Of a DNA stretch of 32,000 bases, positions 1 to 17,788 are shown one piece after another. The position numbers and the translations under genes were made by a program. Below the pieces are notes generated by a model that was given only the letters and a program-made list of their open reading frames with translations, was not told where the DNA came from and did no database searches. Location of the stretch: assembly GCF_000015585.1 (NCBI RefSeq), contig NC_008789.1, positions 2,370,001 through 2,402,000 on the forward strand, in the 5' to 3' direction. The number at the start of each line of letters is the position of its first letter. Position 1 is the stretch's first letter. Source of the stretch: Halorhodospira halophila SL1. GTDB taxonomy: Bacteria; Pseudomonadota; Gammaproteobacteria; Nitrococcales; Halorhodospiraceae.

Positions 1-806
1 ACCCCCAGGCGATGCCCGTGGAAATCCACCTCCAGGAGGGCCCCGGTCAGGAACATGTCCGCCGGCAGGCTCCGGAAGAGCTTCTCGTTGACGTCGTCGA
101 GCAATTCGGCGGGATGGGCGCCGCGCCCCACCCGATCGTAGAAAACCGCCGCCAGACCGGGCACACCGACCGCTGCCCCGATCCCGTGCCCGGTGAAGTC
201 TCCGATGAGGATCAACAGGTTGCCGTTGGGCCGGCGGGCAGCGAGGAGGATATCGCCGCTGAGAATGGCCGCAGGTTGATAATGGAAGCGTACTCCGGGG
301 GCGCGCAGGTCGCTGGACTCCGTGGCCCGGGCCACGATGCGCTCGGCGGTCTCCTGCTCCCGCTCGAGCCGCTCCTGGTGGCTACGCAGGACGTCACGCT
401 GGGCCACCACGGTGTGGTAGAGACCGCGGGTGCGCAGCCAGGAGTCGATCTTGGCGTTGAGCTGGACCCGGCTGATGGGCTTGGTGACGAAGTCGTCGCC
501 GCCGGCCTCGACGCACTGTGCCAGCCGCTGCTCGTCGGTGAGCGCGGTGACGAAGAGCACCGGGATGAACCCCTCGGTGTCCATGGCCTTGATCTGCCGG
601 GTGGCCTGATAGCCGTCCATCCGCGGCATCATGATGTCCATGAGGATCATGTCCACCGGCTGCTCGCGGAACCGGGCCACCGCCTCCTCGCCATTGGTCG
701 CCGTGATCACGTGAAAGCCCCGCGCCCCGAGGATCGCCTCGAGGAGCATGGTGTTCACCGGCTCATCATCGACGACCAGGAAGGTAGGCAGTGATTGGTC
801 GGCCAC
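1..806 (-). CDS. Response-regulator receiver fused to a PP2C/SpoIIE-type serine phosphatase (RsbU/HsbR/CrsR-like); the 3' end lies beyond the left window edge
   Basis: Absent from the ORF track because there is no stop in the window. My minus-strand translation from GTG 804-806 gives VADQSLPTFLVVDDEPVNTMLLEAILGARGFHVITATNGEEAVARFREQPVDMILMDIMMPRMDGYQATRQIK...LFVTALTDEQ...DDFVTKP (a receiver pattern). It continues ...ILSGDILLAARRPNGNLLILIGDFTGHGIGAAVG (the PP2C/SpoIIE GHG motif). The track ORF 12..794 (+) is its antisense shadow. An alternative in-frame GTG lies at 813-815, and the SD is weak for both. Confidence 0.85.
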   Translation of the reverse strand, partial: MADQSLPTFLVVDDEPVNTMLLEAILGARGFHVITATNGEEAVARFREQPVDMILMDIMMPRMDGYQATRQIKAMDTEGFIPVLFVTALTDEQRLAQCVEAGGDDFVTKPISRVQLNAKIDSWLRTRGLYHTVVAQRDVLRSHQERLEREQETAERIVARATESSDLRAPGVRFHYQPAAILSGDILLAARRPNGNLLILIGDFTGHGIGAAVGVPGLAAVFYDRVGRGAHPAELLDDVNEKLFRSLPADMFLTGALLEVDFHGHRLG

Positions 807-857
807 TCTATCCACGACGTGTGCTCTGCTCCGAAACGCCCGCGCGGCCCATGGGGG

Positions 858-1163
858 TCACTCCTCGATGGTAAACAGGCGCTGGAAGTTGGCGATCTCG
901 AGGATCTTACGCACCTCCCGGGAGCAGTTACGCAGGGCAACCTCGGCGCCCTGATCGCTGGCCGACTCCCTTAGCAGCAACAGCATACCGAGGGCGGAGC
1001 TGTCCATGTACTCGGTCTGGGACAGGTCGATGACGTAGCGACGGACACCCTCCACCCCCTTGTACGCCTGCCGGAAATCCTTATGCAGACTGAAGTCGAA
1101 AAAACCCTGGATTGACATCACCAGGGTCTGGCCGTCGTTCTCGCGTTGGGTTTCGATGCCCAT
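858..1163 (-). CDS. STAS-domain anti-sigma-factor antagonist (SpoIIAA/RsbV/HsbA-like) with a conserved phospho-serine motif
   Basis: 101 aa from ATG 1161-1163, preceded by CAGGAGCGAGGAACG (SD). The track ORF 858..1253 is 5'-extended. The sequence is MGIETQRENDGQTLVMSIQGFFDFSLHKDFRQAY...RYVIDLSQTEYMDSSALGMLLLLRE...VRKILEIANFQRLF. The YMDSSALG stretch matches the DSSG phospho-site region of SpoIIAA-type STAS proteins. Confidence 0.85.
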   Translation of the reverse strand: MGIETQRENDGQTLVMSIQGFFDFSLHKDFRQAYKGVEGVRRYVIDLSQTEYMDSSALGMLLLLRESASDQGAEVALRNCSREVRKILEIANFQRLFTIEE

Positions 1164-1215
1164 CGTTCCTCGCTCCTGTATGACTGACTGTTGAGCGATG
1201 ATTACGCTCGAATAC

Positions 1216-1237
1216 CGGCGGCAGGCCACTGCCGCCG
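1216..1237 (-). other. Intergenic stem-loop between the last MCP gene and the STAS gene (possible intra-operon terminator/attenuator)
   Basis: CGGCGGCAG (1216-1224) and CTGCCGCCG (1229-1237) form a perfect 9-bp GC-rich stem with a 4-nt loop. It sits inside the 117-nt gap 1164..1280. On the minus strand it is followed by GTATTCGAG, so there is no clear U-tract. Confidence 0.4.
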
Positions 1238-1280
1238 ACGCGCCCCGCCCCAAGGCCCGCGTGCGCCACGACGACGGCGA

Positions 1281-2525
1281 TCAGAATAGCTCCACGTCGC
1301 CGTGATCCATGGAGTGTTGCTCCACCTTGCGCTGGCTGGCCCGCGCCGTCTCGCGCTCCTGACGCTGCTGCGCCAGCCGCTCGCGGGCCTCGCGTAGACG
1401 CGCCGCGTACTGGCTGCCGTGGACGTCCTCCTCGGCGATGGCCTGCAGGACATTGCGCACGCCATCGAGGTAGTCATCCAAACCCTCGACCCCGGCGCGC
1501 GAGCCATCCACCAACTGCGTCACAATGTCCTCGAACTGCAGGGCACGAACGGCGTCGGCCACGTGGTGATCGATCTGTCCACTGACCTCAGAGATGCGCT
1601 TGACCTGCTGCTCCACCTGCTGATCCACGTCCTGGAGACTCTTCATCATCCCCGAGATCTGCTCCTTGGTGGTGAGGGTCACGTTCATGTCGTTGGAGGC
1701 CATCTCGCCGACCTCGGTGCGCGCCTCGTCCACCAGGTTACTGATGGTCTTGACCTCCTGAGCGATCTGCTCGTTGAACTGGTTGGCCTTCTCGGAGAGC
1801 TTGCGGACCTCCTCGGCCACCACCGCGAAACCGCGGCCGGACTCACCGGCGCGGGCCGCCTCGATGCTGGCATTGAGAGCGAGCAGGTCAGTCTGGCTGG
1901 CGATCCCTTTGAGGTCGGCGAGCAGCTTGTGGATCCGGTCCATCTGGTGGACCATATCGTCGATGCGCTCGACGGTCTTCACGCTGCGCCGACTCATGTC
2001 GACGACCATCTCGACGTAGTTGTTCAGGAAGGATTCGGTCTCGTGGACGAACTCGGCGATGCCGAACTGTTCCACGGCCGAATCCCCGCCGGTCTGCTCG
2101 ATCACCGCCCGAGCCAGGCGTTCCTGTTCATCCGTGGCCTGATCCATGCCGTTGAAGCTCTGATTGAGCGACTGCACGGCGTCGCCGACGAGCCCGCGGA
2201 TCTGCTCCAGGTCACTGTTCACCGTACGGAACTCGGCGTTGAGACTATCGTCGATGTCGTGGAGCAGATCGCGCAGGGCGTCTTCCAGATCCTCCACGGT
2301 ATCCGTCGCCTCGTTCCACCCCGTCTCGCGTCGGCGCAGATAGCCGACCGCGGCCCAACCGCTGGCGCCGAGCACCACCGCCAGCGGTCCTGTCGCCGGC
2401 CAGGCGTAGGCGATCGCCATCGCCACCGCGGTCAACACCGACGGGGCACCATAGTGGCGCAGCCACGCCGTCTTCGGGTGGTAGACGATGGACTCGCCGT
2501 CGCGATCCTCGGCAACCTCGACCAT
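1281..2525 (-). CDS. Methyl-accepting chemotaxis protein with a membrane hairpin and no periplasmic domain
   Basis: 414 aa. I moved the start to ATG 2523-2525 (AGGAGAGG SD, 2 nt after the cheB stop); the track ORF is 456 aa. Two adjacent hydrophobic segments ([35 protein letters not shown]) leave no room for a periplasmic domain. The signalling tip reads [34 protein letters not shown], followed by [10 protein letters not shown]. The protein ends HGDVELF. Confidence 0.9.
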
Positions 2526-2527
2526 AT

Positions 2528-3577
2528 TCACCTCTCCTGGGTGGGTTGGGAGGGCGGCGCCACCGCCGCCTGGATCGCCTCGGCGATCCGCTCCAGCGGC
2601 AGGACCTGGTCCGCGTGGCCGGCCTTGACGGCAGCGCCCGGCATCCCCCATACGACACTGCTCGCCTCATCCTGGGCGATGGTAACCGCTCCCGCTGCCT
2701 GCATGCGCCCCAAGCCAACGGCTCCGTCGCTGCCCATGCCGGTGAGCAGCACGCCCACGGCGTTAGCACGGGCCGAGGTGGCCACCGAGTTGAACAGCAC
2801 ATCTACGGAAGGCCGGTGGCGGTTGACCAGTTCCCCCTCCGTGACCCGGCAAATGTACTTGCTACCGTCCCGGTGCAACTCCAGGTGGTACCCGCCGGGC
2901 GCGATGTAGACGTGCCCGGGCAACACCCGCTGTCCGTCCTGCGCCTCGTGTACCGAGACCGCGCAGAGGTGATCGAGCCGCTGGGCGAAGGCCGCCGAGA
3001 ACCCCGGCGGCATGTGCTGGGTGATCACCGTGGCCGGCGCGTTGGGCGGCATCACTTCGAGCAGCCGCTGCACCGCCACGGTGCCACCGGTGGAGGCGCC
3101 GATGGCCACGACCTTATCTGTGGTGCGCTGGTGGGGGCGAGGCGGGGCTGCGGCCGCGCTTCGTGCGGGGCCGGGCCGGACCCGCGCCTGCGCCGCGGCG
3201 CGCACCTTGGCCACGATCTCGTCCCGATACCCCTCCAGCGCATAGCTGACATCGGCTTTCGGCTTGGTGACGAAGTCCACGGCGCCCAGCGCGAGCGCCT
3301 CCAGGGTCTCCTCGGCGCCGACCTCGGTCAGCGAAGAGACCATGACCACCGGCATGGGGCGCAGCCGCATCAGATTGCGCAGGAAGGTGATGCCGTCCAT
3401 GCGCGGCATCTCGACGTCGAGGGTCAGGACATCGGGATTGAGCTGCTTGATCTTCTCACGGGCGTCGTAGGGGTCCCGGGCCGTCCCCACAACCTCGATG
3501 CCCTCTTCCGCTGCGAACAGCTCGGCCAGCAGCCGCCGGATCAGCGCGGAGTCGTCGACAATCAGGACCCGGATCAT
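2528..3577 (-). CDS. cheB: Chemotaxis response regulator protein-glutamate methylesterase CheB
   Basis: [17 protein letters not shown]...[14 protein letters not shown]...VTKP is the receiver. AIGASTGG...HMPPGF...GMGSDG are the methylesterase motifs. I use ATG 3575-3577 because the track start at 3595 is a TTG. Confidence 0.95.
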
Positions 3578-3591
3578 ACCGCGCTGCGTCC

Positions 3592-4251
3592 TCAAAACAG
3601 GTCGACGTCGCCGGAGACCGGCTGCTCGTCGATCTCGTGGAGGTAGTGCTCCTCGCGGCGCACGACGGTGTCGTTGCGCGTGCGCAGGAGCTTCTTCGAC
3701 CGCGCCCGTCCGCTCTCGGGGAAGTACTGCACCTTCCGGGGATACTGGCCACCCAGATCTCGACCGATCAGCCGCAGACCCTCCGTCCGCACATAGCTTT
3801 CGGCAAACTCGATGTTCCGTTTCCCCACATCGGTGACCCCGGCCAGCACCCGCCCACCGCCGAAGAGCTTGACCTCCAGCTCCTGGCGCTGACCGCCCAG
3901 GGCGAGGACGCGGTTGATCAGCTGCTCCATGGCGTGATTGCCGTACCGGGTCGCGGTACTCAGTGGATCGCCCTCCCAGTGGTTCGGATCGCCTCCGCGG
4001 ACAGGCAGCATGAAGTGGTTCATGCCCCCGACCCCCAGGCGCCGATCCCGAACGCAGGCCGAGACACAGGAGCCGAGCGTGGTGACGATCATCTCATTGC
4101 CGCGGGTGACATAGAACTCTCCGGGCAGGATCTTGGCCGCGAAGACCTGATGCTCCGGATCCCAGTAGCGGTTGATGTGCCCGAACCCCGGCAGACAGTC
4201 GGGCACGGTAACGCCGCGGTTGCGAAACGCCCCCAGCTGCATGGTACTCAT
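3592..4251 (-). CDS. cheD: Chemoreceptor glutamine deamidase CheD, with a C-terminal extension
   Basis: 219 aa. The CheD core is ...[29 protein letters not shown]...GGMNHFMLP.... The start ATG 4249-4251 overlaps the cheR stop (ATGA). The tail after ...KVQYFPESG ends SGDVDLF. Confidence 0.9.
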
Positions 4252-5066
4252 CCGACCTTGCGGTAGATGGTGCGGCCGTGGGATTCAAACCGCTCACTGA
4301 CCCGCCAGAGGGTCTCCGAGTGGCCGATGTAGAGCCACGCCTGCGGGGTCATGACACCGACCATGCGCTCGAAGAGCCGACGCTGGATGTCCTTGTTGAA
4401 GTAGATGATCACGTTGCGGCAAAAAACGATATCGAACGGTTCGCGAAACGGCCAGTCGTGCAGGAGATTGAGCTGATGGAACGACACCAGACGCTGCAAC
4501 TCAGGGCGTACCCGAACCATACCCTCCTTGCTGCCCTTGCCGCGCAGGAAGTGAGCACGCAGCCGTTCTCGGCTCAGGCCGGCCACCCGCTTGTGGTCGT
4601 AGACCCCGCGGGCACACTGCTCCAGCACGTTGCTGTCTAGGTCGGTACCGAGGATGTGCACCCGATCCGCTGCGCGCTCGCCGAAGACCTCTCGGGCGAC
4701 GATGGCCGCCGAGTAGACCTCCTCGCCGGTGGAGCAGCCGGCCGACCAGATGCGCACTCGGCCCGAGGACGCGGCAAGCACCTCGGCCAGATGCTCGAAG
4801 TGGTGCGCCTCGCGGAAGAACGCGGTCAGGTTGGTGGTCAGCGCATTGACGAAGTGCGCCATCTCCCGGCGCTGGGGATCCCCCAGGAGGTGCTCCCGGT
4901 AGGCCGCGAAATCGCGCAGGCCGAGGGCGCGCAGCCGGCGCGCGAGGCGCGAGTAGACCATGTCGCTCTTCGCCTCGCTGAGCTGGATACCCGTCTCCCG
5001 GCCCACCGTCTCGCGAATCCATTCGAAGTCCTCGCGGGTAAAGCGAAACTCACGCTCACCGCCCAC
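4248..5066 (-). CDS. cheR: Chemotaxis protein methyltransferase CheR
   Basis: 272 aa. GTG start at 5064-5066 with the SD AGGAGGGCCACC. FRFTREDFEWIRE...FFRE..HFE...RIWSAGCSTGEEVYS is the CheR N-terminal plus SAM-binding signature. Confidence 0.93.
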   Translation of the reverse strand: MGGEREFRFTREDFEWIRETVGRETGIQLSEAKSDMVYSRLARRLRALGLRDFAAYREHLLGDPQRREMAHFVNALTTNLTAFFREAHHFEHLAEVLAASSGRVRIWSAGCSTGEEVYSAAIVAREVFGERAADRVHILGTDLDSNVLEQCARGVYDHKRVAGLSRERLRAHFLRGKGSKEGMVRVRPELQRLVSFHQLNLLHDWPFREPFDIVFCRNVIIYFNKDIQRRLFERMVGVMTPQAWLYIGHSETLWRVSERFESHGRTIYRKVG

Positions 5067-5119
5067 GGTGGCCCTCCTGGCCGATTGCTGCGCTGCGCAT
5101 CAAAACCGCACTCTCCGCC

Positions 5120-7015
5120 TCAGAACTCTTCCCACTCGCTGTCCTCCACGTCCGCCGTCTGGCGCTTCTGCGCACCGGCAGAAGGGCGAGGGGTGGACGA
5201 AGCGGAAGCGCCGGAGCCGCCGCGGTGACCCCCGCTGCTGCCACCCTGGCTCGACCGTTGGCCACTGCCCCCGGCCGGCCGCGCCGCCTGGCCCGACTGC
5301 CCGCCGCTGCTCCGCGTCGGCCGGCTGGCCGAGCTCTTGGCCTTGGCCACCGCCTGATCGGCACCGCCGAAGAAGGCCATCAGCTGGACCAGGTTGGTGG
5401 ACTGCTCGTCCAGGGACTCGGCGGCCGACGCGGCCTCCTCGACCAGCGCGGCGTTCTGTTGGGTGACCTCGTCGAGCTGGCTGACCGCTTTGTTGATCTC
5501 GTCGATCCCCGAAGACTGCTCCTCGCTGGCCGCGGAGATCTCCGCCACCTTGTCGGTGACCGTCTGAACCGCCTCGAGGATCTCCTTGAGGGTCTCATTG
5601 GACTCGTTGACCAGGCGGGTACCGTCCTCGACCTTCTCGCCGCTATCGTTGATCAGACGCTTGATGTCCTTGGCCGCGGTGGCACTGCGCTGGGCGAGGT
5701 TACGGACTTCTGCGGCGACCACGCCGAACCCGCGGCCGTGCTCACCGGCCCGGGCGGCCTCGACGGCTGCGTTGAGCGCCAGCAGATTGGTCTGGAAGGC
5801 GATCTCGTCGATCACCGTGATGATGTCCGAGATCTCGCGGCTCGACTGCTTGATCGCGCCCATCGCCTCGACCACCTGACCGGAGATCTGCTGGCCGCGC
5901 TCGGCCCGCTCGCGGGCCGCCGTGGCGAGCTGATTCGACTCGCGGGCGTTGTCCGCGGTCTGCTTCACCGTCGAGGTGAGCTCCTCGATGCTCGAGGCGG
6001 TCTCCTCCAGGGAGCTGGCCTGCTCCTCGGTACGCTGGGAGAGATCCTGGTTGCCCTGGGCGATCTCCGAGGACGCCGAGTCGATGCTCTCCGCCGTCTC
6101 GCGGACCTCGTCCACCGTCCGCCGCAGCACGTCGACGGTCGAGTTGACCCAGGCCTGCAGCTGGCCGAAGTCGCCCTTGAAATCGCCGTCCATGTGCTGA
6201 GCCAGATCGCCGTTGGCGACCTTCTCCATCACCCGGATCACCTCGCGCACCGGGGCCTGAGTGACGTCGAGGACCATGTTGATGTCCTCGCTCAGGGTGC
6301 GGATGAACCCCTCGGACATGCTCGAGGTCTCCACCCGGTGACTGAGCTCGCCGTTCTGGATACGCTCGATCAGCGCCTCGACATCGTGCTGCGCCTTCTT
6401 CTCGTTGGCGCGCCGGTGCCAGTCCTCGGTGATGTCGAACCACTCGAGGGTGTTGCCGAGGAAGTTGCCCTCCTCGTCGTCCTCGCCGGTGATATAGACG
6501 TTGAAACGCAGCTCGCCGATGTGCAGCTCCTGTTGCAGGGCGTCCTCGCGGACACGCTTCATCTGGCTCGCCAGCGACTGCAGCTGCGGGATCACGTCGA
6601 ACAGCGAGCGCTGGTCCTCCAGGTTCTTGGTCGTGAACCCGGGATTGACCGCGGCGATCTGATCCGCGTAGTGCTCCAGCATCTTCTGCATGGGCTCATT
6701 GACGTAGTGGATCGTGCCGTCCGAATTGGTCATCAGGAAGGCCGTGGTCGCCGTATGCATGGCCAGCTTGGCACGGTAATACTCGATGTACTCCGCCCGG
6801 TCGACGGTGATCGTTCGCTTTTGGTCGCTGCCCGCCATGGTGGTGCCCCCACTATCCGACTCCGTGTGCGCTGCCTGGTGGTCCGGTGCCCCAGCCGTCT
6901 CTTCGTCCGTCTGCGCCGCCGAGGCCGGCGGCTGTTCCGTGTCGTCCTTCATCCAGGCCAACGGGTCGCGGCCCAGCTTCTTGTTGTCGCCGTTGGATCC
7001 ACCGCTTTTCGCCAC
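5120..7015 (-). CDS. Soluble PAS-HAMP methyl-accepting chemotaxis protein with a C-terminal EWEEF pentapeptide (Aer2/McpB-like by position and tail)
   Basis: 631 aa from GTG 7013-7015. This GTG sits 13 nt after the ParA-like stop and is preceded by GAGGAGGAGCAGCC. The track start at 7057 would overlap the upstream gene by 29 nt. There are no hydrophobic TM segments. The PAS-like region is [23 protein letters not shown]...FDIT. The HAMP-like region is ...[26 protein letters not shown].... The tip is [40 protein letters not shown]. An approximately 80-aa G/S/R-rich tail follows, then DSEWEEF. Confidence 0.9.
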
Positions 7016-7028
7016 GGCTGCTCCTCCT

Positions 7029-7811
7029 CTACTCGGCCGCCGCCGGCTCGAGGACACGATACGCCTCGATGTCCCCGGCGACGGCGATGTAATCCTGCGC
7101 CCCGTTGCTCTCGGGGCGGTACTCGAAGATGGTCTGGCCGAACCCCGGCGCCTCGGCCAGCGCCACGTTGTCCCGGATCGGGGTCTGCAGAACCTGACCG
7201 GGGAAGTACTCCCGGAGCTTGCCCAGCACCTCCCGCGGCAGCCGGCGCTGCCCGTTGTAACGGGTCACCAGCACGTACTTGTGGGTGAAGATGTTCAGGC
7301 CCCGCTCGACCCGCATCAGGGTGCGCATCAGCCCGGCGAGCCCCTCCAGGGCCAGGTAGTCGCAGGAGACCGGCATGATGATCTCGTCGGTAGCCAGCAA
7401 CGCATTCATGGCCAACAGGCCGGACGACGGGGGGCAATCGACGACGACAAAGTCCGGGAACGGCTCCAGGCCCCCGATCGCCTGTTGCAGCCGCCAGCCC
7501 CGCTCACGCCCGCCGCTCATCTGTTCGACCTCGGGCAACCGCGGCCCCGGCGGGACCAGGCGGAGGTTCTCCCGCCCCGACTGCAGTCGTTCAGCCAGCG
7601 GCACACCATCGAACAGGACGTCGTCCAGCCCGGGGTCGAGCCCTTCCAGGCCAAGACTGGCGGCGAAGTGCCCCTGGGGGTCGAGGTCGATCCCTACCAC
7701 CTGGCGGCCGGAGCGCGCCCAGGCGTGGGCGACACTCACCGCCGAAGTGGTCTTGCCCACCCCGCCTTTCTGGTTCAGGAAGGAGACGACGCGGGGGCCT
7801 GCTGCGCTCAT
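7029..7811 (-). CDS. ParA/MinD-family (deviant Walker A) ATPase embedded in the che cluster (PpfA/ParC-like)
   Basis: 260 aa. [21 protein letters not shown] is a KGGxxGKT deviant Walker A, followed by VVVDCPPS. The start ATG 7809-7811 overlaps the upstream MCP stop (ATGA). Confidence 0.88.
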
Positions 7812-9220
7812 GCCCCGCTCGCCCCGTTCTTGTTGCCCTCATCCATCTCGCGGGCCAGGCGGCTCAGCAGCTCGACCACCTGCTCGGAGTTGTCCCCGAG
7901 CTGCTCCAGCTCGCCGGCAGCGGCGTCGACCTCGCCCTGGTTGTAGAGCTCGGCGGCGCGCTTGCCGTGGGCGTGGACCGCCCGGTGCGGCTCCTCCAGC
8001 TCGATGAAGGCCGGCAGCTGACGGATCCAGGCCTCCTCGACCGCGTCGTACCACTTGCCGAGACGACAGGCGTGGTGGTCGGTCAGCTCGCGGCTGTCGA
8101 CATCCTCGCGACCGGCCAGCATGGCGGCGATGCGCCGCTTCCACATCACGTGGTCGAACTTGCTGCGCTCAATGAAGAGCTTGGGCAGATTGTGCTCGCC
8201 CAGCCGCTCGATCTGATCGGTGAGGATCGCCGTGGAGCGGCCCAGGGCGTCGAGGGTGCCCTCCACGTCGTTGACGTTGCGCTCGGTGCGGTCGGTCACG
8301 GCGCTGATGGACTCGGCCACCTGGGTCACCGCGCCCTTCTGCTCATTGATCACCGAGGAGACGTTCTGGATGTGCTCGGTCACCCCGCGCATGCGCTCGG
8401 CCACCTGCTGCATGGTCTGCGTGGTCTCGGCGGTGGCCTCGCGTCCCCGGTCGACGGCGCTGCCCATCTCTTCAACCGAGGCGGAGATGGCCTCGGTCTC
8501 GTCGCGCAGGGTCCGGATCCGTTGGGCGATATCTACGGTGGCGCTCTTCGTCTGATCGGCCAGGCGGCGCACCTCCTGGGCAACTACCGAGAAACCGGCG
8601 CCGGCCTGCCCGGCCCGGGCCGCCTCCACCGAGGCGTTGAGGGCCAGCATATTGGTCTGGAAGGCAATCTCTTCGATGAGCTCGATAATCGAGCCGATCT
8701 CGTTGGAAGCCTGGTTGAGCTGTTTGACGCGCGTGGCCGCCGTCTCGGCCAGTCCGGCGATCTCCCGGACCGTTTCGTCGGTGGTCCGCGAGGCCTTGTC
8801 ACCGGCATCCACCAACTCCTGCACGCGCTCGGTCTCGGTGGCCACCGCAGCGCTGTTGTCGGCCACGGTGTCGACACTGGCGGCCAGTTCCTCGGAGGTG
8901 GAAGCGATGGTCTGACTGCGCTCGCTGGTCTCGCGAATGGTCATGCGCATCCCCGAGGTCGCCACCAGGCTGTCGGCGGTGTGCGCGGCCAGCTCGACGA
9001 TGTCGTGCAGCGCGCGCGAGTCTTTCCGTCCGACCTGGCCGGCCAGCCGCCGCAGGGCCCTGGAGAGTTCGCAATCGCCGCGCGGCACGCCGAGGTAATC
9101 GCCGCGGCCGATCTGATCGATGGTGCCGAGCAGTTCTCGTACACGCTCCGGCGGCACCCAGCCCTCCTCGATCAGGGCGGTGCGCTCTTCGGCGGAAAGC
9201 GCGGTATTGGTGTCATTCAT
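7808..9220 (-). CDS. Soluble methyl-accepting chemotaxis protein with a C-terminal CZB (chemoreceptor zinc-binding) domain (TlpD-like architecture)
   Basis: 470 aa from ATG 9218-9220. The SD AGGAGGG is upstream and the start overlaps the cheW end by 8 nt (ATGAATGA). The track ORF is 5'-extended to 9313. No TM segments are present. The tip is [40 protein letters not shown]. The C-terminus is FDHVMWKRR...[12 protein letters not shown]...[11 protein letters not shown], which is the H-x3-W ... C-x-L-G-x-W ... H-x3-H pattern. Confidence 0.88.
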
Positions 9221-9830
9221 CGGGGGTACCCTCCTGCCCGGCCGAGCGGACCACCTCGGCGATGCGGCTCTGATCATCGGCGATGGCGAGATCCTCGTCG
9301 CTGAGCAGCTCATCGACGTCGAGGACGATCACCATCTTGTTCTCGTCCACCGTGGCCAGGCCACGGATGAAGTTGGTGCGTAGCGCGGCACCGAACTCCG
9401 GTGCCGGGCGGATCTGCTCGGACTGGAAGGTGTAAACCTCCGACAGCGCGTCCACCACCAGGCCCATGATCCGCTCCCGGCCGCCGCGGGCGACCACCCG
9501 GACCATGACCACCACGGTGAACTTGCTGTATTCCTGCGCCTGCATCCCGAAACGTTCCCGCAGATCGATGACCGGGACGATGGTGCCGCGCAGGTTGATG
9601 ACACCCTTGACGTAGTGGGGCGTGTTGGGAATGGGCGTAACCCGCTGCCAACCCTTGATCTCCTGCACACGCAGGATATCGACCCCGTACTCCTCCTCGC
9701 CGAGAGTAAAGGTCAGGTACTGATCGCCATCGGCTGCAGCCTGCATGGCGTCAACAGTGTCTGCACCACTGCCCAGTGCGGCTGCCTTGCGGTCGTCTCC
9801 GAGGGTGCCGTGCTCGCTGTCCTGGGTCAT
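9213..9830 (-). CDS. cheW: Chemotaxis coupling protein CheW
   Basis: 205 aa. [59 protein letters not shown] is the canonical CheW core. Confidence 0.93.
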
Positions 9831-9875
9831 GACTGCTCTCCGCTTCGCAACTGGGGGATCCCGGGGATGGATGCT

Positions 9876-11987
9876 TCAGGCGGCCTCATCGCTGTCCTCC
9901 GGGGTGGGGATGTAGGGCTGACGACGGCCACCGCGGCTCATCTCGATGAGCCCGGCGATATCGAGGATCAGGGCCACGGTGCCGTCGCCGAGGATGGTGG
10001 CGCCAGCGATGCCGGGCACCTGCAGGTAGTTGGCCTCCAGGCTCTTGATGACCACCTGCTGCTGATCAAGGAGGTCGTCGACAAAGACTCCCAGGTAGGT
10101 GTCTTCGTCCTCGACGATCACCATCAGCCCACCGGCGAGCTCGCGGCGAACCGGTTCGGTGTCGAAGAGCTCGTGGAGGCGCACGATGGGGACGTACCCC
10201 TCGCGCCAGTGGTAGACCTCGCCCCGGCCGGTAACCCGGCTGAGCTTGCTGCCGTCGACTTGGAGCGACTCGATGACCGAAACCAGCGGCACGATGTAGG
10301 TCTGGTCGCCTACCCGGAACAGCTGGCCGTCCAGGATCGAGAGGGTCAGCGGCAGCGAGATGGTGATGGTCGTGCCCTGCCCTTGAGCTGAGCGCACATG
10401 GATATTGCCGGACAGGGAGCGGACGTTGCGCTTGACCACATCCATCCCCACACCCCGGCCGGAGTATTCGGTGGCCTGCTCATGAGTGGAGAGCCCGGGA
10501 TGGAAGATCAGGTCGAAGACCTGGTCATCGGGCAGTTCGGTGCCGTCCTCGAGCAGCCCGGAGCTGCGCGCCTTGGCCAGCAGCTTGTCGCGATTGATGC
10601 CGCGACCATCATCGGCGATCTCGATGATGATATTGCCGCCCTTGTGGTAGGCCTCGATGGTGATGGTGCCGGTCTCGGGCTTGCCGGCAGCGGCCCGCTC
10701 CTCCGGCGGCTCGATGCCGTGGTCGACGCTGTTGCGGACCAGATGGACCAGCGGATCGATGATCTTCTCCATCACCGTCTTGTCCAGCTCGGTCTGCTCG
10801 CCCTCCATCTGGAAGTCGACGGCCTTGCCCAGGGCGCGGCTGGTGTCGTGGACGATGCGCGGCAGCCGCGAGTAGGCGAAGCTGATTGGCACCATGCGGA
10901 TGCGCATGACGTTCTCTTGCAGTTCGCGCGTGTTGCGCTCGAGCTGCGCCAGGCCGTCCTGGAGTTCTTCCAGGCGCTCGGCGGTGAACTCCTTGCCGAC
11001 CTGGCTGAGCATCGACTGGGTGATCACCAGCTCACCGACCATATCGATGAGGGCGTCGATCTTCTCGGTATCCACCCGGATGGAGCTATTCCCTCCCCCA
11101 CGGCGTGCGGCCGGCTTGCGCGCTTCGCCACCGCCGGCTGCGGGCGCCGCAGGGCCACTCTCCTCAGAGGTCGGCATCGGGGGCTGCCCGGGTGCTACCG
11201 GAGCTACCTCCTCGGTACCTGCGGCCTCCAGGGGCTGGATCTCGAGCCGGGCATCGTCCTCGACCCACTCGAAGACCTCGCGCACCGCCGCCTCGGGCAC
11301 GTCGGCGTAGAGGCGCAGGGTCCAAGCCAGCTGACAGGTTTCCGGATCGAGCTGCTCGAAGGGCGGCAAACCCGAGGTGTCGCATTCGACCTCAAGCTCG
11401 CCGAGATCCTGGAGGGCCAAGAAGAGCCGACGCGGGTCGTTGCCCGTGGCGAACAGGTGGGGCTGCGGCTCGAAGCGAATCAACCAGCCGCCGCCGCCGC
11501 CTCCCCCGCGGGGCGGCGGCGCATCGTCACCGCCGGCATCACCGCCGCCGGCTGTCGGTCCGGCCGCGGCGCCGGTCGCCCCCCCACCGCCCACGGGTGC
11601 CTGCCCGAGCTGCTCGTCGAGCCGCTGCTGGGCAGTGCTGATCGCGTCGGCGTCCAGGGTTTGGTCACTCTGGATCGCCACCAGCATGCCTCGCAGGCAA
11701 TCGACGGCATTCAGCAACACATTGACGCAGTCGGGCGTAACCGCCTGTTTGCCGTCACGCAGTCGATCGAGCAGGGTCTCCATGCGGTGGGTGAAGTCCG
11801 AGACCGCGCTGAGACCGAAGGTTCCGGCGCCCCCCTTGATGGAGTGGGCCGCGCGGAAGACGTTGTTGAGGGCCTCGGGATCCGGGCTCTCTGGATCGAG
11901 TTCCAGCAGGCCCGACTCCATGGTATCCAGCCCCTCGAAGCTCTCCTCGAAGAAGGTCTGCAGGAACTGGCTCAGGTCTACGCTCAT
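9876..11987 (-). CDS. cheA: Chemotaxis histidine kinase CheA (P1-P5, no fused receiver)
   Basis: 703 aa. P1 is FRAAHSIKGGAGTFG. A Gly-rich linker leads to a P2-like segment (WLIRFEPQ...DVPEAAVREVFEWVEDDARLEI). P3 is IRVDTEKIDALIDMVGELV. The kinase carries N/G boxes (HLVRNSVDHGIE...DDGRGI...GRGVGMDVV). P5 is the CheW-like domain. Confidence 0.95.
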   Translation of the reverse strand: MSVDLSQFLQTFFEESFEGLDTMESGLLELDPESPDPEALNNVFRAAHSIKGGAGTFGLSAVSDFTHRMETLLDRLRDGKQAVTPDCVNVLLNAVDCLRGMLVAIQSDQTLDADAISTAQQRLDEQLGQAPVGGGGATGAAAGPTAGGGDAGGDDAPPPRGGGGGGGWLIRFEPQPHLFATGNDPRRLFLALQDLGELEVECDTSGLPPFEQLDPETCQLAWTLRLYADVPEAAVREVFEWVEDDARLEIQPLEAAGTEEVAPVAPGQPPMPTSEESGPAAPAAGGGEARKPAARRGGGNSSIRVDTEKIDALIDMVGELVITQSMLSQVGKEFTAERLEELQDGLAQLERNTRELQENVMRIRMVPISFAYSRLPRIVHDTSRALGKAVDFQMEGEQTELDKTVMEKIIDPLVHLVRNSVDHGIEPPEERAAAGKPETGTITIEAYHKGGNIIIEIADDGRGINRDKLLAKARSSGLLEDGTELPDDQVFDLIFHPGLSTHEQATEYSGRGVGMDVVKRNVRSLSGNIHVRSAQGQGTTITISLPLTLSILDGQLFRVGDQTYIVPLVSVIESLQVDGSKLSRVTGRGEVYHWREGYVPIVRLHELFDTEPVRRELAGGLMVIVEDEDTYLGVFVDDLLDQQQVVIKSLEANYLQVPGIAGATILGDGTVALILDIAGLIEMSRGGRRQPYIPTPEDSDEAA

Positions 11988-12024
11988 CGCTCGCCCCCCC
12001 GTTGGGCGCTCAGGGCCCGGGCCG

Positions 12025-12387
12025 TCAGCGCACCACCTTCTTGATGGTGTTGACCAGCTGATCCGGGTCGAAGGGCTTGACCAACCACCCGGTCGCCCCG
12101 GCCGCCTTGCCCTCCTGCTTCTTCTCCGGCGCCGACTCGGTGGTCAGCAGCAGGATCGGCGTGAACTTGAAAGCGGGCAGTCCACGTAGCTCACGGACCA
12201 GGGTGATACCGTCCATCTTCGGCATGTTGACGTCCGTGATGACCAGGTCGAAGCCACCCGCCTTGGCCTTGGTCAATGCGTCCGTGCCATCCACCGCCTC
12301 GGTGACCTCGTAGCCCTGCTGCTTGAGGGTGTAGGTCACCATCTGCCGCATGGAGGCGGAATCATCGACCGCCAGGATCTTCGCCAT
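12025..12387 (-). CDS. cheY: Single-domain response regulator CheY
   Basis: 120 aa. MAKILAVDDSASMRQ...DLVITDVNMPKMDG...LLLTTES...WLVKPF shows the full D-D-D-T-K receiver pattern. Confidence 0.95.
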   Translation of the reverse strand: MAKILAVDDSASMRQMVTYTLKQQGYEVTEAVDGTDALTKAKAGGFDLVITDVNMPKMDGITLVRELRGLPAFKFTPILLLTTESAPEKKQEGKAAGATGWLVKPFDPDQLVNTIKKVVR

Positions 12388-12413
12388 CGTCTCGTTCCCT
12401 TCGTCTGTCTGGG

Positions 12414-12707
12414 TTAGCGGGCTGCGCCGCCGGACCCGAGTTCATCAGCCAGGCCAAGATCAGCGGCAGCCTCGGCGACCGGGGCCGGCGCCCCCCCGCC
12501 TTGCCACGACCAGCCGGAACGGCTCGTCGCCGCCCGCGCGAAGGCGGCCAGCAGCTGCACGCCGGCGGCGTCGACCCGTTGCAGCCGCGCACCGTCCAGC
12601 GTGACCGGCTGCCCGGAGGCCAGCGCGTCGCTAAGCGTCTCTTTGAGGGTTGTCGCTACGGTGATGTCGAGTTGCTCGCCCAACTCGATCGGCTGATCGG
12701 CCGCCAT
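12414..12707 (-). CDS. Small STAS-like protein heading the cheY-cheA operon; the phospho-serine position is Ala
   Basis: 97 aa from ATG 12705-12707. ...ELGEQLDITVATTLKETLSDALASGQPVTLDGARLQRVDAAGVQLLAAF... has STAS-like topology. VDAAGV sits where SpoIIAA-type proteins have DSSG. The stop is 26 nt before the cheY start. Confidence 0.7.
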   Translation of the reverse strand: MAADQPIELGEQLDITVATTLKETLSDALASGQPVTLDGARLQRVDAAGVQLLAAFARAATSRSGWSWQGGGAPAPVAEAAADLGLADELGSGGAAR

Positions 12708-12758
12708 GATTTCCCTACGCGCTTGCCGGTTGTCCTTGCAGATTGCCCGTCATTGTCG

Positions 12759-12786
12759 TTAACGGCAAGAGCCGGCATTCACTTGA
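12759..12786 (-). promoter_or_regulatory. Candidate sigma28 (FliA)-like promoter upstream of STAS-cheY-cheA
   Basis: The minus strand reads TCAA-N16-GCCGTTAA, against the consensus TAAA-N15-GCCGATAA. It lies about 50 nt upstream of ATG 12707. The spacer is one nt long, with one mismatch in each element. The -10 overlaps the near-palindrome TTGCCGTTAACGACAA. Confidence 0.25.
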
Positions 12787-12824
12787 ATGGCATGCCTCCC
12801 CGTTGTAGGGCCACGCGCGGGACA

Positions 12825-13178
12825 TCAGGACGTGCGCGCGCGCCGCGCCTTGATGGCAGCCTCGAGCCGCTCGGCGGCCTGTTCGAGGCCGGGCAGACAC
12901 GCCCGGGCCGTGGCCAGATCGCCGGTGCGCGCCGCATCGTCCAGGTTGCGCGCGCACTCGCGCGCCTCCACGGCCCGAACGCTGGCCAAGGCCCCCTTGA
13001 TCGGGTGAGAGACCTGGTGAGCGGCTTCGGGATCTCCACGGTCGAGGGCGTCACGCAGGGTGGCCAGGCGCACCGGGAGGTCTTGCTGGATTCGCTCCAG
13101 CAGCATGTCCGCCAGCTGCTCGTCGCGGCCGATGTTGTCGAGCAGCTCTTCCAGGTCGATCACGGGGCGATCGGACAT
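12825..13178 (-). CDS. Stand-alone histidine phosphotransfer (Hpt) protein
   Basis: 117 aa from ATG 13176-13178 with the SD GAAGGAGCC. The track ORF is 5'-extended to 13310. ...DPEAAHQVSHPIKGALASVRA... carries the HxxKG Hpt motif within a predicted helical bundle. Confidence 0.85.
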   Translation of the reverse strand: MSDRPVIDLEELLDNIGRDEQLADMLLERIQQDLPVRLATLRDALDRGDPEAAHQVSHPIKGALASVRAVEARECARNLDDAARTGDLATARACLPGLEQAAERLEAAIKARRARTS

Positions 13179-13209
13179 CGCGCCGGCTCCTTCGCTAACG
13201 GGGTGGGGG

Positions 13210-13773
13210 TCACGCAGTGGGTTGCCAACCTTCGCGCAGGCACGGCAACAAGCGCCGGAACGTTTCGGTCCCGGCGCGCTGGAGCCACTCGAAGGCGACC
13301 ATCTCGGCACCCACGATCACCACGCCGGCCTGGCGCATGCGGGCCAGGGCCAAGTCGCGATCAGCGGCACGCCGCGAACCCACCGCCTCGGCCACAGCAA
13401 ACACCTGATGGCCCAACTGCTGCAGACCCAGAGCCGTCTGCAGGACACAGACGTGGGCCTCCGTGCCGGCGATGATCACCTGCTCGGGGAGGCGGACACC
13501 CGCACGGCTGGGGTCCTGGGCCCAGGAGAAGTGCATCTTGGTATGGCATTGCGATGCCGGCACCCAGCGGGCCACCGGGCCCGCGGTGGCCCCCAGTCGC
13601 TCCGGATACTGCTCCGTGGCGTGGATCGGCAGCTCGAGCTCATGCGCAACCCCCGCCAACCAGTCCGCCGCGGCGACCACCTGCTCGCCGCCGTCTATCG
13701 CCGGCAGCAACCGCTCCTGCAGGTCCACCAGTAGCAGGGCGCTGCGCGCCGGGTCGATCAGGGTGTCCGTCAT
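13210..13773 (-). CDS. Isochorismatase-family cysteine hydrolase
   Basis: 187 aa from ATG 13771-13773, which forms an ATGA overlap with the upstream Slp stop. ALLLVDLQERL ... CHTKMHFS ... IIAGTEAHVCVLQTAL is the D/K/C triad pattern of the family. The track ORF 13210..14112 is 5'-extended. Confidence 0.85.
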   Translation of the reverse strand: MTDTLIDPARSALLLVDLQERLLPAIDGGEQVVAAADWLAGVAHELELPIHATEQYPERLGATAGPVARWVPASQCHTKMHFSWAQDPSRAGVRLPEQVIIAGTEAHVCVLQTALGLQQLGHQVFAVAEAVGSRRAADRDLALARMRQAGVVIVGAEMVAFEWLQRAGTETFRRLLPCLREGWQPTA

Positions 13774-14303
13774 CGCGAGAACATCACTCCAACGCCGAAA
13801 CGCACCTGCGGCTGGCTCCTCGCCGCAGCCGCCTGCGGCCAGAGGTGGACGGCATCCGTGGCCACCACCGGGTAGGTCAGCTCCTGCTCGCCCACGCGCC
13901 CGGTGCGCAGAGCCTCCACCGGCCCGCGGACTGTGACCAGCCGGCCGGGCCGATGGTCGGCGCTCTCCAGAAACCCCGGGTAGTCGACCAAGAACCGCCC
14001 CTGCGGCGAAGCCCCGGTGCGGGGGCGCTGGCTGCGCTCCAGCGGATAGCTCACCACCTCCAGCCGCGTCGTATCTTCCAGATGCTCGACACCCACGATA
14101 CGCCCTGCCCACAGGACCTCGCTACCAACGGCGTCGTCGCCGGCGGCAGCGGCATCGCGGGCGGTCAGCTCGGTGGACAGGTCGTCATTCCGCTCGAAGG
14201 GCGCGCCGGCGGCACAGCCCAGCAGGACCACCGCAGCAGCCGGCAGCAACCAGCGGACCACGCGGGCCGAGCGCCCGCGGCGAGCGACTGCGGAGCGCCC
14301 CAT
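13770..14303 (-). CDS. Slp-family outer-membrane lipoprotein (paralog B)
   Basis: 177 aa from ATG 14301-14303, a TGATG overlap with the paralog A stop. It has a signal peptide plus the lipobox VVLLGCAAG. The Slp core is ...VLWAGRIVGVEHLEDTTRLEVVSYPLE...GRFLV...TYPVV...HLWP. Confidence 0.8.
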   Translation of the reverse strand: MGRSAVARRGRSARVVRWLLPAAAVVLLGCAAGAPFERNDDLSTELTARDAAAAGDDAVGSEVLWAGRIVGVEHLEDTTRLEVVSYPLERSQRPRTGASPQGRFLVDYPGFLESADHRPGRLVTVRGPVEALRTGRVGEQELTYPVVATDAVHLWPQAAAARSQPQVRFGVGVMFSR

Positions 14304-14872
14304 CACCAGTACGGCCGCCGGTAGGGCCCGTAGTAATAAGGGGACCCCGGATGCCGGTACCAGCGATGGTCGCACCAGGGGTCATACCACGGATCGTAGT
14401 AGGGACGCGGGGCCACCTGCCTGGGCTCGGCCCGCTCCTGCCAGAGATGGTGGGCTGCGACTTCGACCACCGGATAGGTGTAGCCGTACTCGCCGATCGC
14501 CCCTTTCACGGTGCCGTCCAGGGTCCCGGCCACGGTGAACTCCCGCCCCGGGGCGTAGAGCGTGGGCTCCAGGAACCCTTCGACCCGCGCCAGGAAGCGG
14601 CCCTCCGAACGGTCCGCATCACGGGGCTGGCCACCGCTGCGCAGCGGCCGCTCGACGATCTCCAGCCAGGTGGCGTCGGCCTCGTTGCGCACCTCGACGA
14701 TCTCCCCGCCCCAGCGCACCGATTCGCCGTCGTGGCCCCCGGGGTCGTCGCGCACCTGCGCCAGGGATGGGGTCTCGTCCGGGGGACTGCGTACCGGATC
14801 CGGCACCGTACTGGCGCACCCCGCCAGCAGCCACGCCATCACCACCAGGAACAGGACTCGGATGGACACCAC
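14303..14872 (-). CDS. Slp-family outer-membrane lipoprotein (paralog A) with an aromatic/Pro-rich C-terminal tail
   Basis: 189 aa. GTG start at 14870-14872 with the SD ACGGAGG. The lipobox is WLLAGCAS. The core is VRWGGEIVEVRNEADATWLEIVERPL...GRFLARVEGFLEP...YTYPVVEVAAHHLW. The tail is PRPYYDPWYDPWCDHRWYRHPGSPYYYGPYRRPYW. Confidence 0.8.
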   Translation of the reverse strand: MVSIRVLFLVVMAWLLAGCASTVPDPVRSPPDETPSLAQVRDDPGGHDGESVRWGGEIVEVRNEADATWLEIVERPLRSGGQPRDADRSEGRFLARVEGFLEPTLYAPGREFTVAGTLDGTVKGAIGEYGYTYPVVEVAAHHLWQERAEPRQVAPRPYYDPWYDPWCDHRWYRHPGSPYYYGPYRRPYW

Positions 14873-14920
14873 AGCGGCCTCCGTCGGCTCGGGCTCTCCC
14901 CCCCTCAGTATACAAAGCCG

Positions 14921-16635: not shown

Positions 16636-16671
16636 TGCACTGCCTGCGTGGTACGCCAATGCTGCCCCGCT

Positions 16672-17634: not shown

Positions 17635-17788
17635 CTTGACCAGTTTCCTCGCTACGACCGCCTGCGTCCAGCCACCCGCGCCGGCGGGCCGGGCGGCCAC
17701 AGCACGGCTGATTGGCCGCCGGGCGGCGAACACTGCGGTCGATCCGGTTGCGGAGGGCAGCGGCGGGTTTCATGCTTACACCTTTGAA

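Follow-up and report, generated by a model that had tools for sequence, protein, structure and literature searches.

The stage-1 F7 chemosensory clusters defined by Ortega et al. (2020, PMC7184735) have the gene order anti-sigma antagonist, cheY, cheA, cheW, aer2-like, cheR, cheD, cheB, mcpA-like, second antagonist and serine phosphatase. Halorhodospira halophila SL1 is included in that data set: its CheA is labelled F7 in the trees, and the supplement has Hhal_2159, Hhal_2163, Hhal_2167 and Hhal_2168 of the cluster analysed here. The Shewanella che1 locus includes CrsR and CrsA, with che1, crsA and crsR in one transcription unit, and a link between the F7 system and RpoS has already been proposed for this genus (PMC9855816). 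In Pseudomonas aeruginosa, HsbR, a REC-PP2C-kinase/anti-sigma protein, is the target of HptB, HsbA is phosphorylated at Ser56, and HptB is fed by the hybrid kinases PA1611, SagS and ErcS', which are unrelated to Che2 (PMC6482189). A further STAS protein, CheS, binds CheA (PMC12654446).

We analysed a window of 32,000 nt from H. halophila SL1, together with 58 related loci. At the left end of the window, 14 of 14 genes are co-directional on the minus strand (the strand of all features described below), and Pfam supports for every one of them the domains assigned in an earlier note, as well as the F7/Che2 assignment of the che genes. Gene content, order and domain integrity are established, the whole string is conserved throughout the Halorhodospira lineage (the same order, including the Hpt, CZB receptor and ParA genes, occurs in H. 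halochloris and in L089-L091), and each module recurs among other gammaproteobacteria. We consider it probable that the locus is a stage-1 (ancestral, non-motor) F7 cluster whose 3' end carries an HsbA/HsbR-type partner switch, with an HptB-like gene just upstream, and that it falls into one class with V. cholerae cluster III, P. aeruginosa Che2 and S. oneidensis Che1. The combination had been thought undescribed, but two STAS proteins and a serine phosphatase around che genes are the published definition of stage-1 F7 (PMC7184735). Independent gene calls on the identical contig reproduce the overlaps at 7808-7811 and 9213-9220; the one at 4248-4251 exists only with one start choice, as the called CheD starts at 4242 and leaves a 5-nt gap. 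The remaining intergenic gaps are 2-53 nt, apart from two long ones of 117 nt each.

The chemosensory core comprises CheY (Hhal_2168, 12025..12387; PF00072, 3e-29), CheA (Hhal_2167, 9876..11987), with Hpt (P1), H-kinase_dim, HATPase_c and CheW domains joined by long Gly/Ala/Pro-rich linkers, and CheW (9213..9830; PF01584, 7e-41, residues 37-179), which is extended by about 36 aa at its N-terminus. CheW is encoded once, whereas the stage-1 definition has two cheW genes. Also present are CheR (4248..5066; CheR_N and CheR, 8e-56), CheD (3592..4242; C-terminal GDVDLF, 100% identical to the NCBI H. halophila CheD) and CheB (2528..3577; REC and CheB_methylest, 4e-67). The Aer2-like MCP (Hhal_2163, 5120..7015; NCBIfam Aer2 5e-155) has HAMP_2, MCPsignal and a single weak PAS domain and ends in SEWEEF, and the McpA-like MCP (Hhal_2159, 1281..2525; MCPsignal 2e-27) has an N-terminal hydrophobic TM hairpin and the C-terminus GDVELF. 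The EWEEF tether and DVELF appear in Supplementary Tables 11 and 12, respectively, of PMC7184735. The cluster shares with the stage-1 systems of V. cholerae (cluster III) and M. alcaliphilum the gene order, the xWxxF tail of the aer2-like product and the DVELF tail of the mcpA-like product; a re-annotated Vibrio aquimaris locus has the same string with a REC-PP2C-kinase gene. It differs from them in the one PAS domain of its Aer2-like receptor, in the HptB-like gene adjoining its 5' end, and in a CZB receptor gene and a ParA-like gene inserted between cheW and aer2.

The inserted receptor (7808..9220; MCPsignal 3e-39, CZB 1e-15) resembles TlpD-type proteins, as it is a soluble MCP whose C-terminal, zinc-binding CZB domain keeps the His/Cys motif, but unlike them it is encoded within an F7 operon. 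It is rare (5 of the 58 surveyed loci) and conserved in the Halorhodospira lineage, and in other F7 loci CZB is instead fused to PAS-containing Aer2-like receptors. The neighbouring ParA/MinD-type ATPase (7029..7811; KGGVGKT; AAA_31 3e-34, CbiA) recalls PpfA of R. sphaeroides and ParC of Vibrio and H. neapolitanus, which are likewise ParA/MinD ATPases with a deviant Walker A encoded within a che cluster, their genes adjoining cheW and a cytoplasmic receptor gene. In contrast to these, the H. halophila protein is, judged by sequence identity, a member of a separate, F7-specific subfamily: it is 41-74% identical to ParA-like genes in other F7 clusters and about 27% identical to the ParC-like ones that adjacent F6-type clusters encode. 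Its role is probably to position the array; no ParP-like gene was seen. The ATPase had been listed among the unusual parts of the locus, but its presence in 24 of the 58 loci makes it a common F7 accessory.

At the 3' end, the 117-nt gap at 1164..1280 contains the stem-loop reported earlier (1216-1237, 9 bp, GC-rich). There is neither a T-run at the hairpin nor a terminator call in this gap, which as a whole is no more stably folded than shuffled sequence (z -0.47), and the hairpin is not terminator-like. Beyond it lie genes for a 3' STAS protein of the HsbA/CrsA anti-sigma antagonist type (858..1163; PF01740 8e-15, TIGR00377), with Ser55 in a DSS motif and the Ser invariant across 32 homologues, and for a REC+SpoIIE/PP2C protein, the first 271 codons of which are in the window (1..815). 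The remainder lies to the left and was taken from L001, a locus that shows 0 mismatches to the window along 11,163 nt. The full-length protein (L001:10349-12082, 577 aa) has the REC-SpoIIE-HATPase_c_2 architecture of HsbR/CrsR, with REC, PP2C and kinase catalytic motifs readable in its translation, and the two proteins form an HsbA/HsbR (CrsA/CrsR)-type pair as proposed. Of the two features considered in the earlier note for the sequence beyond the window, the anti-sigma-type kinase domain is indeed the missing C-terminus, but a sigma or anti-sigma gene is absent downstream, where a DedA/VTT gene, sodB and a divergent metH are found.

Like H. halophila, S. oneidensis Che1 (stage 2; PMC9855816, PMC6482189) combines F7 che genes, a STAS antagonist and a REC-PP2C-kinase/anti-sigma protein in one locus. 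In Shewanella, however, mcpA-crsA-crsR is at the front, the 5' STAS is absent, and ParA, the CZB receptor and Hpt have not been reported. The Pseudomonas HptB-HsbR-HsbA system (PA3345-PA3347) shares a single-domain Hpt, a REC-PP2C-kinase and a STAS protein with a phosphorylatable Ser, as well as the order of STAS before REC-PP2C-kinase. There all three genes lie side by side, within or close to the flagellar cluster and separate from Che2, whereas the H. halophila hpt is 11.7 kb from the switch, across the che genes. The binding partners in the Pseudomonas system are FlgM, RpoS and HsbD.

The single-domain Hpt (12825..13178; 117 aa, PF01627, 5e-11) has His58 in an HxxKG motif. Its best PDB match is P. 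aeruginosa 7c1i (E 1.2e-6, residues 19-111), identified as HptB (PMC7467158), which bears out the proposed resemblance to HptB. It had been placed at the head of the che operon, but in 5 of 5 Halorhodospira-lineage loci it abuts or overlaps an upstream isochorismatase-family hydrolase gene and lies 81-250 nt from the che genes. In H. halophila this gene (13210..13755; PF00857, 1e-20) is 31 nt upstream, and in L085, L089, L090 and L091 the pair is separated by 9-18 nt or overlaps by 11 nt. The hydrolase gene is probably transcribed together with Hpt, which seems to be part of the transcription unit upstream. Alignment of the five gaps ahead of the che genes (12708..12824 in H. halophila, 117 nt) revealed a conserved TTGCC-N16-GGCAA motif. 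The gap may hold a promoter or operator; no match to the sigma-70 consensus was found within it.

Across the survey, Hpt genes keep company with the REC-PP2C-kinase gene, as had been anticipated: they occur in 9 of 10 loci with this gene, against 0 of the 48 that lack it (Fisher p about 1e-9; the loci are phylogenetically non-independent, and the nine with Hpt stand for about five lineages). The sole exception, L046, has a PP2C-kinase that lacks the REC domain. Oceanospirillales loci have the arrangement hsbA-hsbR-hptB(-fliKLM), and the L057 string, cheB-STAS-REC.PP2C.K-Hpt-fliK-fliL-fliM, parallels the P. putida hsbAR-hptB-fliKLM... operon (bioRxiv 10.1101/2021.08.29.457346). The H. halophila 3' STAS, REC-PP2C-kinase and Hpt are 50%, 35% (end to end) and 29% identical, respectively, to their L057 counterparts.

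Read from synteny, CheA-P may reach the REC-PP2C protein, as has been suggested for Shewanella (PMC9855816). It is possible, though unlikely, that this is neighbourhood without wiring. The switch would then be an HptB-type phosphorelay in its own right, with hybrid sensor kinases encoded elsewhere as its only input; the F7 array would signal through CheY to another target, and adjacency would reflect stationary-phase or stress co-regulation. The Pseudomonas donors of HptB are consistent with such independence, as are the P. putida hsbAR-hptB genes, which are in a flagellar operon away from Che2. Hybrid kinases adjoin the Hpt gene in L006, L008 and L051, which in L006 and L008 suggests a relay with its own sensors, L007 has a kinase-Hpt fusion, and many F7 clusters have no adjacent PP2C-kinase (nine of the 58 loci keep the 3' STAS but not this neighbour). 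Against this, the 3' STAS and PP2C-kinase remain linked to F7 che genes in stages 1 and 2 and in lineages as distant as Vibrio, Shewanella, Halorhodospira, Oceanospirillales and Thiotrichales-like MAGs, the Shewanella genes are co-transcribed with che1, and the F7 CheY has no other known output.

In a further reading, a four-step relay would run from CheA (His) through the F7 CheY (Asp) and the HptB-like Hpt (His) and end at the REC domain (Asp) of the PP2C-kinase, and the orphan CheY would be the missing link between array and switch. In Halorhodospira, L018 and four Oceanospirillales loci, the surroundings of the Hpt and REC-PP2C-kinase genes contain no histidine kinase other than CheA, and the L007 fusion lacks a receiver of its own and therefore needs a separate receiver protein. 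In S. meliloti, CheY~P is known to transfer back to an Hpt-fold domain, the P1 domain of CheA (summarised in PMC12654446). We nevertheless regard this relay as improbable: no Hpt was found near the canonical Vibrio stage-1 cluster, though its REC-PP2C-kinase is present, the gene to which Hpt is coupled in Halorhodospira is an unrelated one upstream, and the HptB donors known so far are hybrid kinases.

The 5' STAS_2 protein (12414..12707; PF13466, 1e-12), counted earlier as the third part of the switch, looks CheS-like instead; it accompanies cheY-cheA with or without the switch, and its Ala is species-specific. Like CheS of S. meliloti and A. fabrum, it is a small STAS-only protein (97 aa) encoded directly upstream of cheY-cheA, although the H. 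halophila cluster lacks a second CheY and CheT, and the similarity is not separable from general STAS similarity, its family scoring equally in hhalign to an alpha-proteobacterial CheS-position STAS and to the 3' STAS. The phosphosite position is Ala47 (in VDAAG) in H. halophila and Thr in H. halochloris and most relatives. That the protein is a true third switch member, a non-phosphorylatable antagonist or decoy on the kinase/anti-sigma domain of the REC-PP2C-kinase, would fit its STAS fold, its place in the same gene string, the hhalign match of its family to the 3' STAS (probability 83%) and its designation as an anti-sigma factor antagonist by Ortega et al. (PMC7184735), but is doubtful given that it heads cheY-cheA in 20 of the 58 loci, eight of which (L005, L009, L016, L042, L043, L044, L056 and L086) show neither the 3' STAS nor PP2C-kinase, that the phosphosite varies within the family (Thr, Gly, Ala, Ser or Leu), that stage 2 lost the 5' STAS yet retained the switch (PMC7184735), and that it occupies the position of the CheA-binding CheS (PMC12654446).

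In the preferred reading, a stage-1 F7 array with an HsbA/HsbR-type output, the Aer2-like haem-PAS receptor, the soluble CZB receptor (zinc/oxidant-type) and the McpA-like receptor would control CheA, with adaptation by CheR, CheD and CheB, placement of the largely cytoplasmic array by its dedicated ParA-like ATPase, and the 5' STAS acting at the CheA-CheY step as CheS does in alpha-proteobacteria. On the output side, the receiver of the REC-PP2C-kinase would be phosphorylated, most probably by the HptB-like protein, turning the enzyme from a kinase to a phosphatase on Ser55 of the 3' STAS, and dephosphorylation would redistribute anti-sigma activity toward RpoS and/or FlgM-FliA, as for HsbR/HsbA and CrsR/CrsA. 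Because the stage-1 definition of Ortega et al. gives the same order, the H. halophila layout is not a new system but one already catalogued, a published hallmark of the ancestral F7 class.

The chemosensory genes of Halorhodospira halophila SL1 lie in a string that runs entirely on the minus strand, from position 13755 to position 1 of the window. It opens with a gene of the isochorismatase family (13210-13755) directly upstream of hpt (12825-13178), followed by a STAS_2 gene, here called the 5' STAS (12414-12707), that ends 26 nt before cheY (12025-12387, Hhal_2168), and by cheA (9876-11987, Hhal_2167) and cheW (9213-9830). These are followed by genes for a soluble receptor (MCP) with a C-terminal CZB domain (7808-9220), a ParA/MinD-type ATPase (7029-7811; AAA_31 and CbiA matches) and an Aer2-like MCP (5120-7015; NCBIfam Aer2, 5e-155), then by cheR (4248-5066), cheD (3592-4242), cheB (2528-3577) and an McpA-like MCP with an N-terminal hydrophobic hairpin (1281-2525). 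Closing the string are a second STAS gene (the 3' STAS, 858-1163) and a REC-PP2C (REC-SpoIIE) gene that is cut by the window edge (1-815). Every domain call made earlier from the sequence is backed by Pfam. The overlaps between neighboring genes at 7808-7811 and 9213-9220 are upheld by independent gene calls on an identical contig, whereas the one at 4248-4251 hinges on the start chosen for CheD. The CheD protein shows 100% identity to the CheD of H. halophila. Within CheA (10400-11600), two long Gly/Ala/Pro-rich low-complexity linkers, at about residues 125-175 and 262-300, flank a stretch of ~85 aa that has no Pfam match and sits where the P2 domain is expected.

This system is already catalogued, and the earlier observation was correct and careful; our additions are few and modest. 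The gene order that Ortega et al. (PMC7184735) give for stage-1 F7 clusters is the order in the window. H. halophila SL1 is among the F7-positive genomes in their supplement, with Hhal_2163 as Aer2-like (EWEEF; Supplementary Table 11), Hhal_2159 as McpA-like (DVELF; Supplementary Table 12), and Hhal_2168 as CheY and Hhal_2167 as CheA, labelled F7 in the published tree files; this numbering agrees with the gene order in the window. Shared with the stage-1 type are a STAS directly before cheY-cheA, an Aer2-like receptor with an xWxxF pentapeptide (here EWEEF) followed by cheR-cheD-cheB, and an mcpA-like receptor with a conserved C-terminus (DVELF) followed by a second STAS and a REC-SpoIIE serine phosphatase. 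The stage-1 definition, however, has two cheW-like genes after cheA, and the window has one CheW-domain gene, with the CZB receptor and the ParA-like gene after it. On a Vibrio aquimaris replicon the stage-1 string is found in its textbook form, with cheW present twice and a REC-PP2C-kinase. In view of Ortega et al. and Fortier et al., both the bracketing of the che genes by two STAS genes and a phosphatase and the idea that the array acts on a sigma-factor partner switch are already published.

The sequence to the left of position 1 could be read on a public contig (L001) that matches 11,163 nt of the window without a mismatch. The truncated gene encodes a protein of 577 aa with the domains REC-SpoIIE-HATPase_c_2, so that the kinase domain about which the earlier note had asked is present, and the architecture is the three-domain one of HsbR and CrsR (PMC6482189). 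Its motifs are readable throughout (DD/D/T/K in the receiver, GHG and DDTT in the PP2C domain, the N-box and G-box in the kinase). A DedA/VTT gene, sodB and then a divergent metH follow on L001; a sigma or anti-sigma gene, the other neighbor that had been considered, is absent from the window and from the adjoining 8 kb. The 3' STAS gene is separated by 42 nt from the REC-PP2C-kinase gene downstream, and its Ser55 (in YMDSSALG, at the SpoIIAA-Ser58 position) is Ser in 32/32 homologues. A STAS antagonist with a phosphorylatable Ser, adjoining a three-domain REC-PP2C-kinase/anti-sigma protein, is also the arrangement of HptB-HsbR-HsbA and CrsR-CrsA. Likewise, the single-domain Hpt, with His58 in HPIKG, is HptB-related, its best PDB match being P. 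aeruginosa HptB (7C1I, E 1.2e-6); in H. halophila, however, hpt is not contiguous with the other two genes. Identities to an Oceanospirillales locus with an hsbA-hsbR-hptB-fliK string (L057) are 50% for the STAS, 35% end to end for the REC-PP2C-kinase and 29% for Hpt. Because of these identities, and because HptB is the best solved relative of Hpt, we read Hpt, the 3' STAS and the REC-PP2C-kinase as a putative HptB/HsbA/HsbR-type set, in agreement with the partner-switch composition first proposed.

To survey conservation, a CheD profile was run against a single genome of each species and the loci were annotated with profiles derived from the window; counts were taken over the 58 loci with a CheR-CheD-CheB core. 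A 5' STAS heads cheY-cheA in 20/58 loci; the 3' STAS occurs in 19, a PP2C-kinase after it in 10, and a ParA-like gene within the cluster in 24 (about 40%). Loci that lack the REC-PP2C-kinase showed no other type of phosphatase after the 3' STAS, the next genes encoding ManC, YchF, an AI-2E transporter or a TPR protein. The whole string, from the isochorismatase and Hpt through the REC-PP2C-kinase, VTT and SodB, recurs in H. halochloris with every gene in its place, and the 5' half is also found on three more Halorhodospira-lineage contigs.

Hpt genes go with REC-bearing PP2C-kinases in this survey. They are present in 9/10 loci with a PP2C-kinase vs 0/48 without one (Fisher p about 1e-9, a value that overstates independence, since the nine Hpt-positive loci represent about five lineages). 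In the sole Hpt-less PP2C-kinase locus of the 58 (L046), the PP2C-kinase that follows the 3' STAS (L046:13437-14699) has no receiver domain. A REC-PP2C-kinase with no Hpt nearby was seen in a Vibrio locus and in two incompletely covered loci (L073 and L084). The Hpts counted come from a local profile search of the loci; a sequence search with the window Hpt, limited by its word index, returned only 7 proteins, all of the Halorhodospira lineage. Four Oceanospirillales genomes (L057, L066, L070 and L072; about 11800-17400) carry the order cheB-STAS-REC.PP2C.K-Hpt-fliK-fliL-fliM in an F7 cluster without mcpA, in effect the P. putida hsbAR-hptB-fliKLM... operon joined to F7 che genes. This order links the "second antagonist plus serine phosphatase" of stage 1 to the HsbA/HsbR system of Pseudomonas. 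The kinases that adjoin such Hpts are PAS hybrid kinases in L006 and L008, and an HK-REC-Hpt hybrid lies upstream in L051. In L007 (14874-16763), a PAS-HisKA-HATPase_c-Hpt fusion with no intervening receiver directly follows the REC-PP2C-kinase gene; for its His-to-His step, a receiver on another protein would be required. Hybrid and fused kinases beside Hpt are consistent with what is known for HptB.

The earlier reading had placed hpt at the start of the che string, and the spacing of the genes does not support it as the start of an operon. In all five Halorhodospira-lineage loci hpt abuts or overlaps the upstream isochorismatase gene (31, 18 or 9 nt apart, or an 11-nt overlap) and lies 81-250 nt from the che genes. 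Judged by this spacing, hpt is probably co-transcribed with the isochorismatase-family gene instead of leading a che operon. Scans of both 117-nt gaps with promoter and terminator consensus sequences found no site, and region-wide counts were at shuffle level. The Hpt-STAS gap contains CTTGCCG-N14-GGGCAATCT (12735-12765, minus strand), an inverted TTGCC/GGCAA pair that 4/5 Halorhodospira-lineage loci keep ~40 nt ahead of the start of the 5' STAS. The pair, a possible operator or promoter element, has no sigma-70 consensus match. The stem-loop noted in the other gap (1164-1280) is real, at 1216-1237, but it has no T-run, and it was dropped as a regulatory element since the gap folds no better than shuffled sequences (z -0.47).

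The 5' STAS is more likely CheS-like than a third component of the switch. In S. meliloti, CheA is bound by CheS, which consists of a STAS domain only (PMC12654446). The 5' STAS matches CheS in size, in this single-domain make-up and in lying immediately 5' of cheY-cheA, a position also taken by a STAS in a Phaeobacter plasmid locus (L088). The link to CheS rests on position and co-occurrence only, because the searches gave no specific sequence link: a profile search of a large protein collection with the 5' STAS returned 168 gammaproteobacterial STAS proteins, none of them named CheS, tblastn against plasmids found no match, and hhalign gave 82% probability to the alpha-proteobacterial (Phaeobacter) STAS in the CheS position vs 83% to the 3' STAS. 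BLASTP detected no similarity between the two STAS proteins of the window. The less likely reading, a third switch component, has against it that the 5' STAS heads cheY-cheA in 8 loci showing neither 3' STAS nor PP2C-kinase, that it is lost in stage 2 with the switch retained, and that its phosphosite varies, the position equivalent to SpoIIAA-Ser58 being mostly Thr in the family and also Gly, Ala, Ser or Leu. A designed non-phosphorylatable component is rejected, since the Ala of H. halophila is Thr in H. halochloris and is thus not kept even within the genus. A 5'-type STAS_2 gene directly before cheR, not cheY, was seen 17 times (for example W-ParA-STAS-cheR-cheD-cheB; loci L007, L017, L020, L022, L030, L035, L050, L055, L059, L061 and L081); the family is therefore mobile within the cluster in other F7 variants.

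The ParA-like gene is a common F7 accessory of which we found no mention in the literature cited here. It resembles ParC and PpfA in encoding a ParA/MinD ATPase with a deviant Walker A motif (QKGGVGKT) inside a che cluster. The F7-cluster proteins are 41-74% identical to the window protein vs about 27% for the ParC-like proteins of adjacent F6-type clusters, and by this comparison they form their own group, a dedicated subfamily. Their position between receptor genes is conserved, and they always adjoin both cheW and the gene for the Aer2-like receptor. Judged from PpfA and ParC (PMC10241942), the most likely role of the protein is to position or partition the array. At their N-termini, CheW carries an extension of ~36 aa (9723-9830) and the Aer2-like receptor a low-complexity region of ~70 aa ahead of its PAS domain (6850-7015). 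Peptide engagement has been proposed for CheW/ParC in H. neapolitanus (PMC10241942), and by that analogy either region could be a peptide that engages the ATPase.

CheD (..SGDVDLF, 3592-3612) and the McpA-like receptor (..HGDVELF, 1281-1301) share a C-terminal tail, G[DE][VI][DE]LF. Across loci L005-L086 this tail ends 51 of the 82 CheD and 15 of the 19 McpA-like proteins; no CheB, CheR, CheW, ParA-like or Aer2-like protein ends in it. The conserved McpA tail is described as unexplained by Ortega et al. (PMC7184735), and we have not seen the match to CheD mentioned. A common docking partner for the two proteins is possible.

The soluble MCP-CZB is the rarest element of the string (5/58 loci); other F7 clusters carry CZB as a fusion to Aer2-like receptors that contain PAS. 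Near this che cluster, which encodes a zinc-binding CZB receptor, is a zinc-uptake ABC system: upstream of hpt on the same strand are znuB, znuC and znuA (14921-17733) and two Slp lipoprotein genes (13770-14872), ahead of the isochorismatase-family gene. The same znu/Slp/isochorismatase order is found in two other Halorhodospira-lineage loci (L089 and L090), and a third (L091) has a different metal-uptake set. Just past the downstream end of the cluster, H. halophila and H. halochloris both have an Fe-SOD gene. This arrangement may be a coincidence or may reflect a metal/oxidant theme.

Ancestral F7 systems (stages 1 and 2), among them V. cholerae cluster III and P. aeruginosa Che2, are still described as having an unclear cellular output, and the locus survey makes small, checkable additions to what is known. 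In H. halophila and its relatives, all candidate components (receptors, CheA/Y/W, adaptation enzymes, a ParA-like ATPase, a CheS-like STAS, an HsbA/HsbR pair and an HptB-like protein) are within one string of ~15 kb, which therefore makes H. halophila convenient for phosphotransfer profiling. By analogy with HsbR/HsbA and CrsR/CrsA, phosphorylated Hpt would phosphorylate the receiver of the REC-PP2C-kinase, which would toggle the protein between phosphorylation and dephosphorylation of Ser55 of the 3' STAS and so release or hold a sigma factor (RpoS and/or FliA via FlgM). A His-Asp-His-Asp relay from CheA through the orphan F7 CheY and the HptB-like Hpt to the receiver of the PP2C-kinase seems to us rather unlikely. 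If it were to exist, a methylation-adapting chemoreceptor array would govern a general-stress or flagellar sigma factor by setting the phosphorylation state of an anti-sigma antagonist, with the CheS-like 5' STAS tuning the CheA-CheY step.
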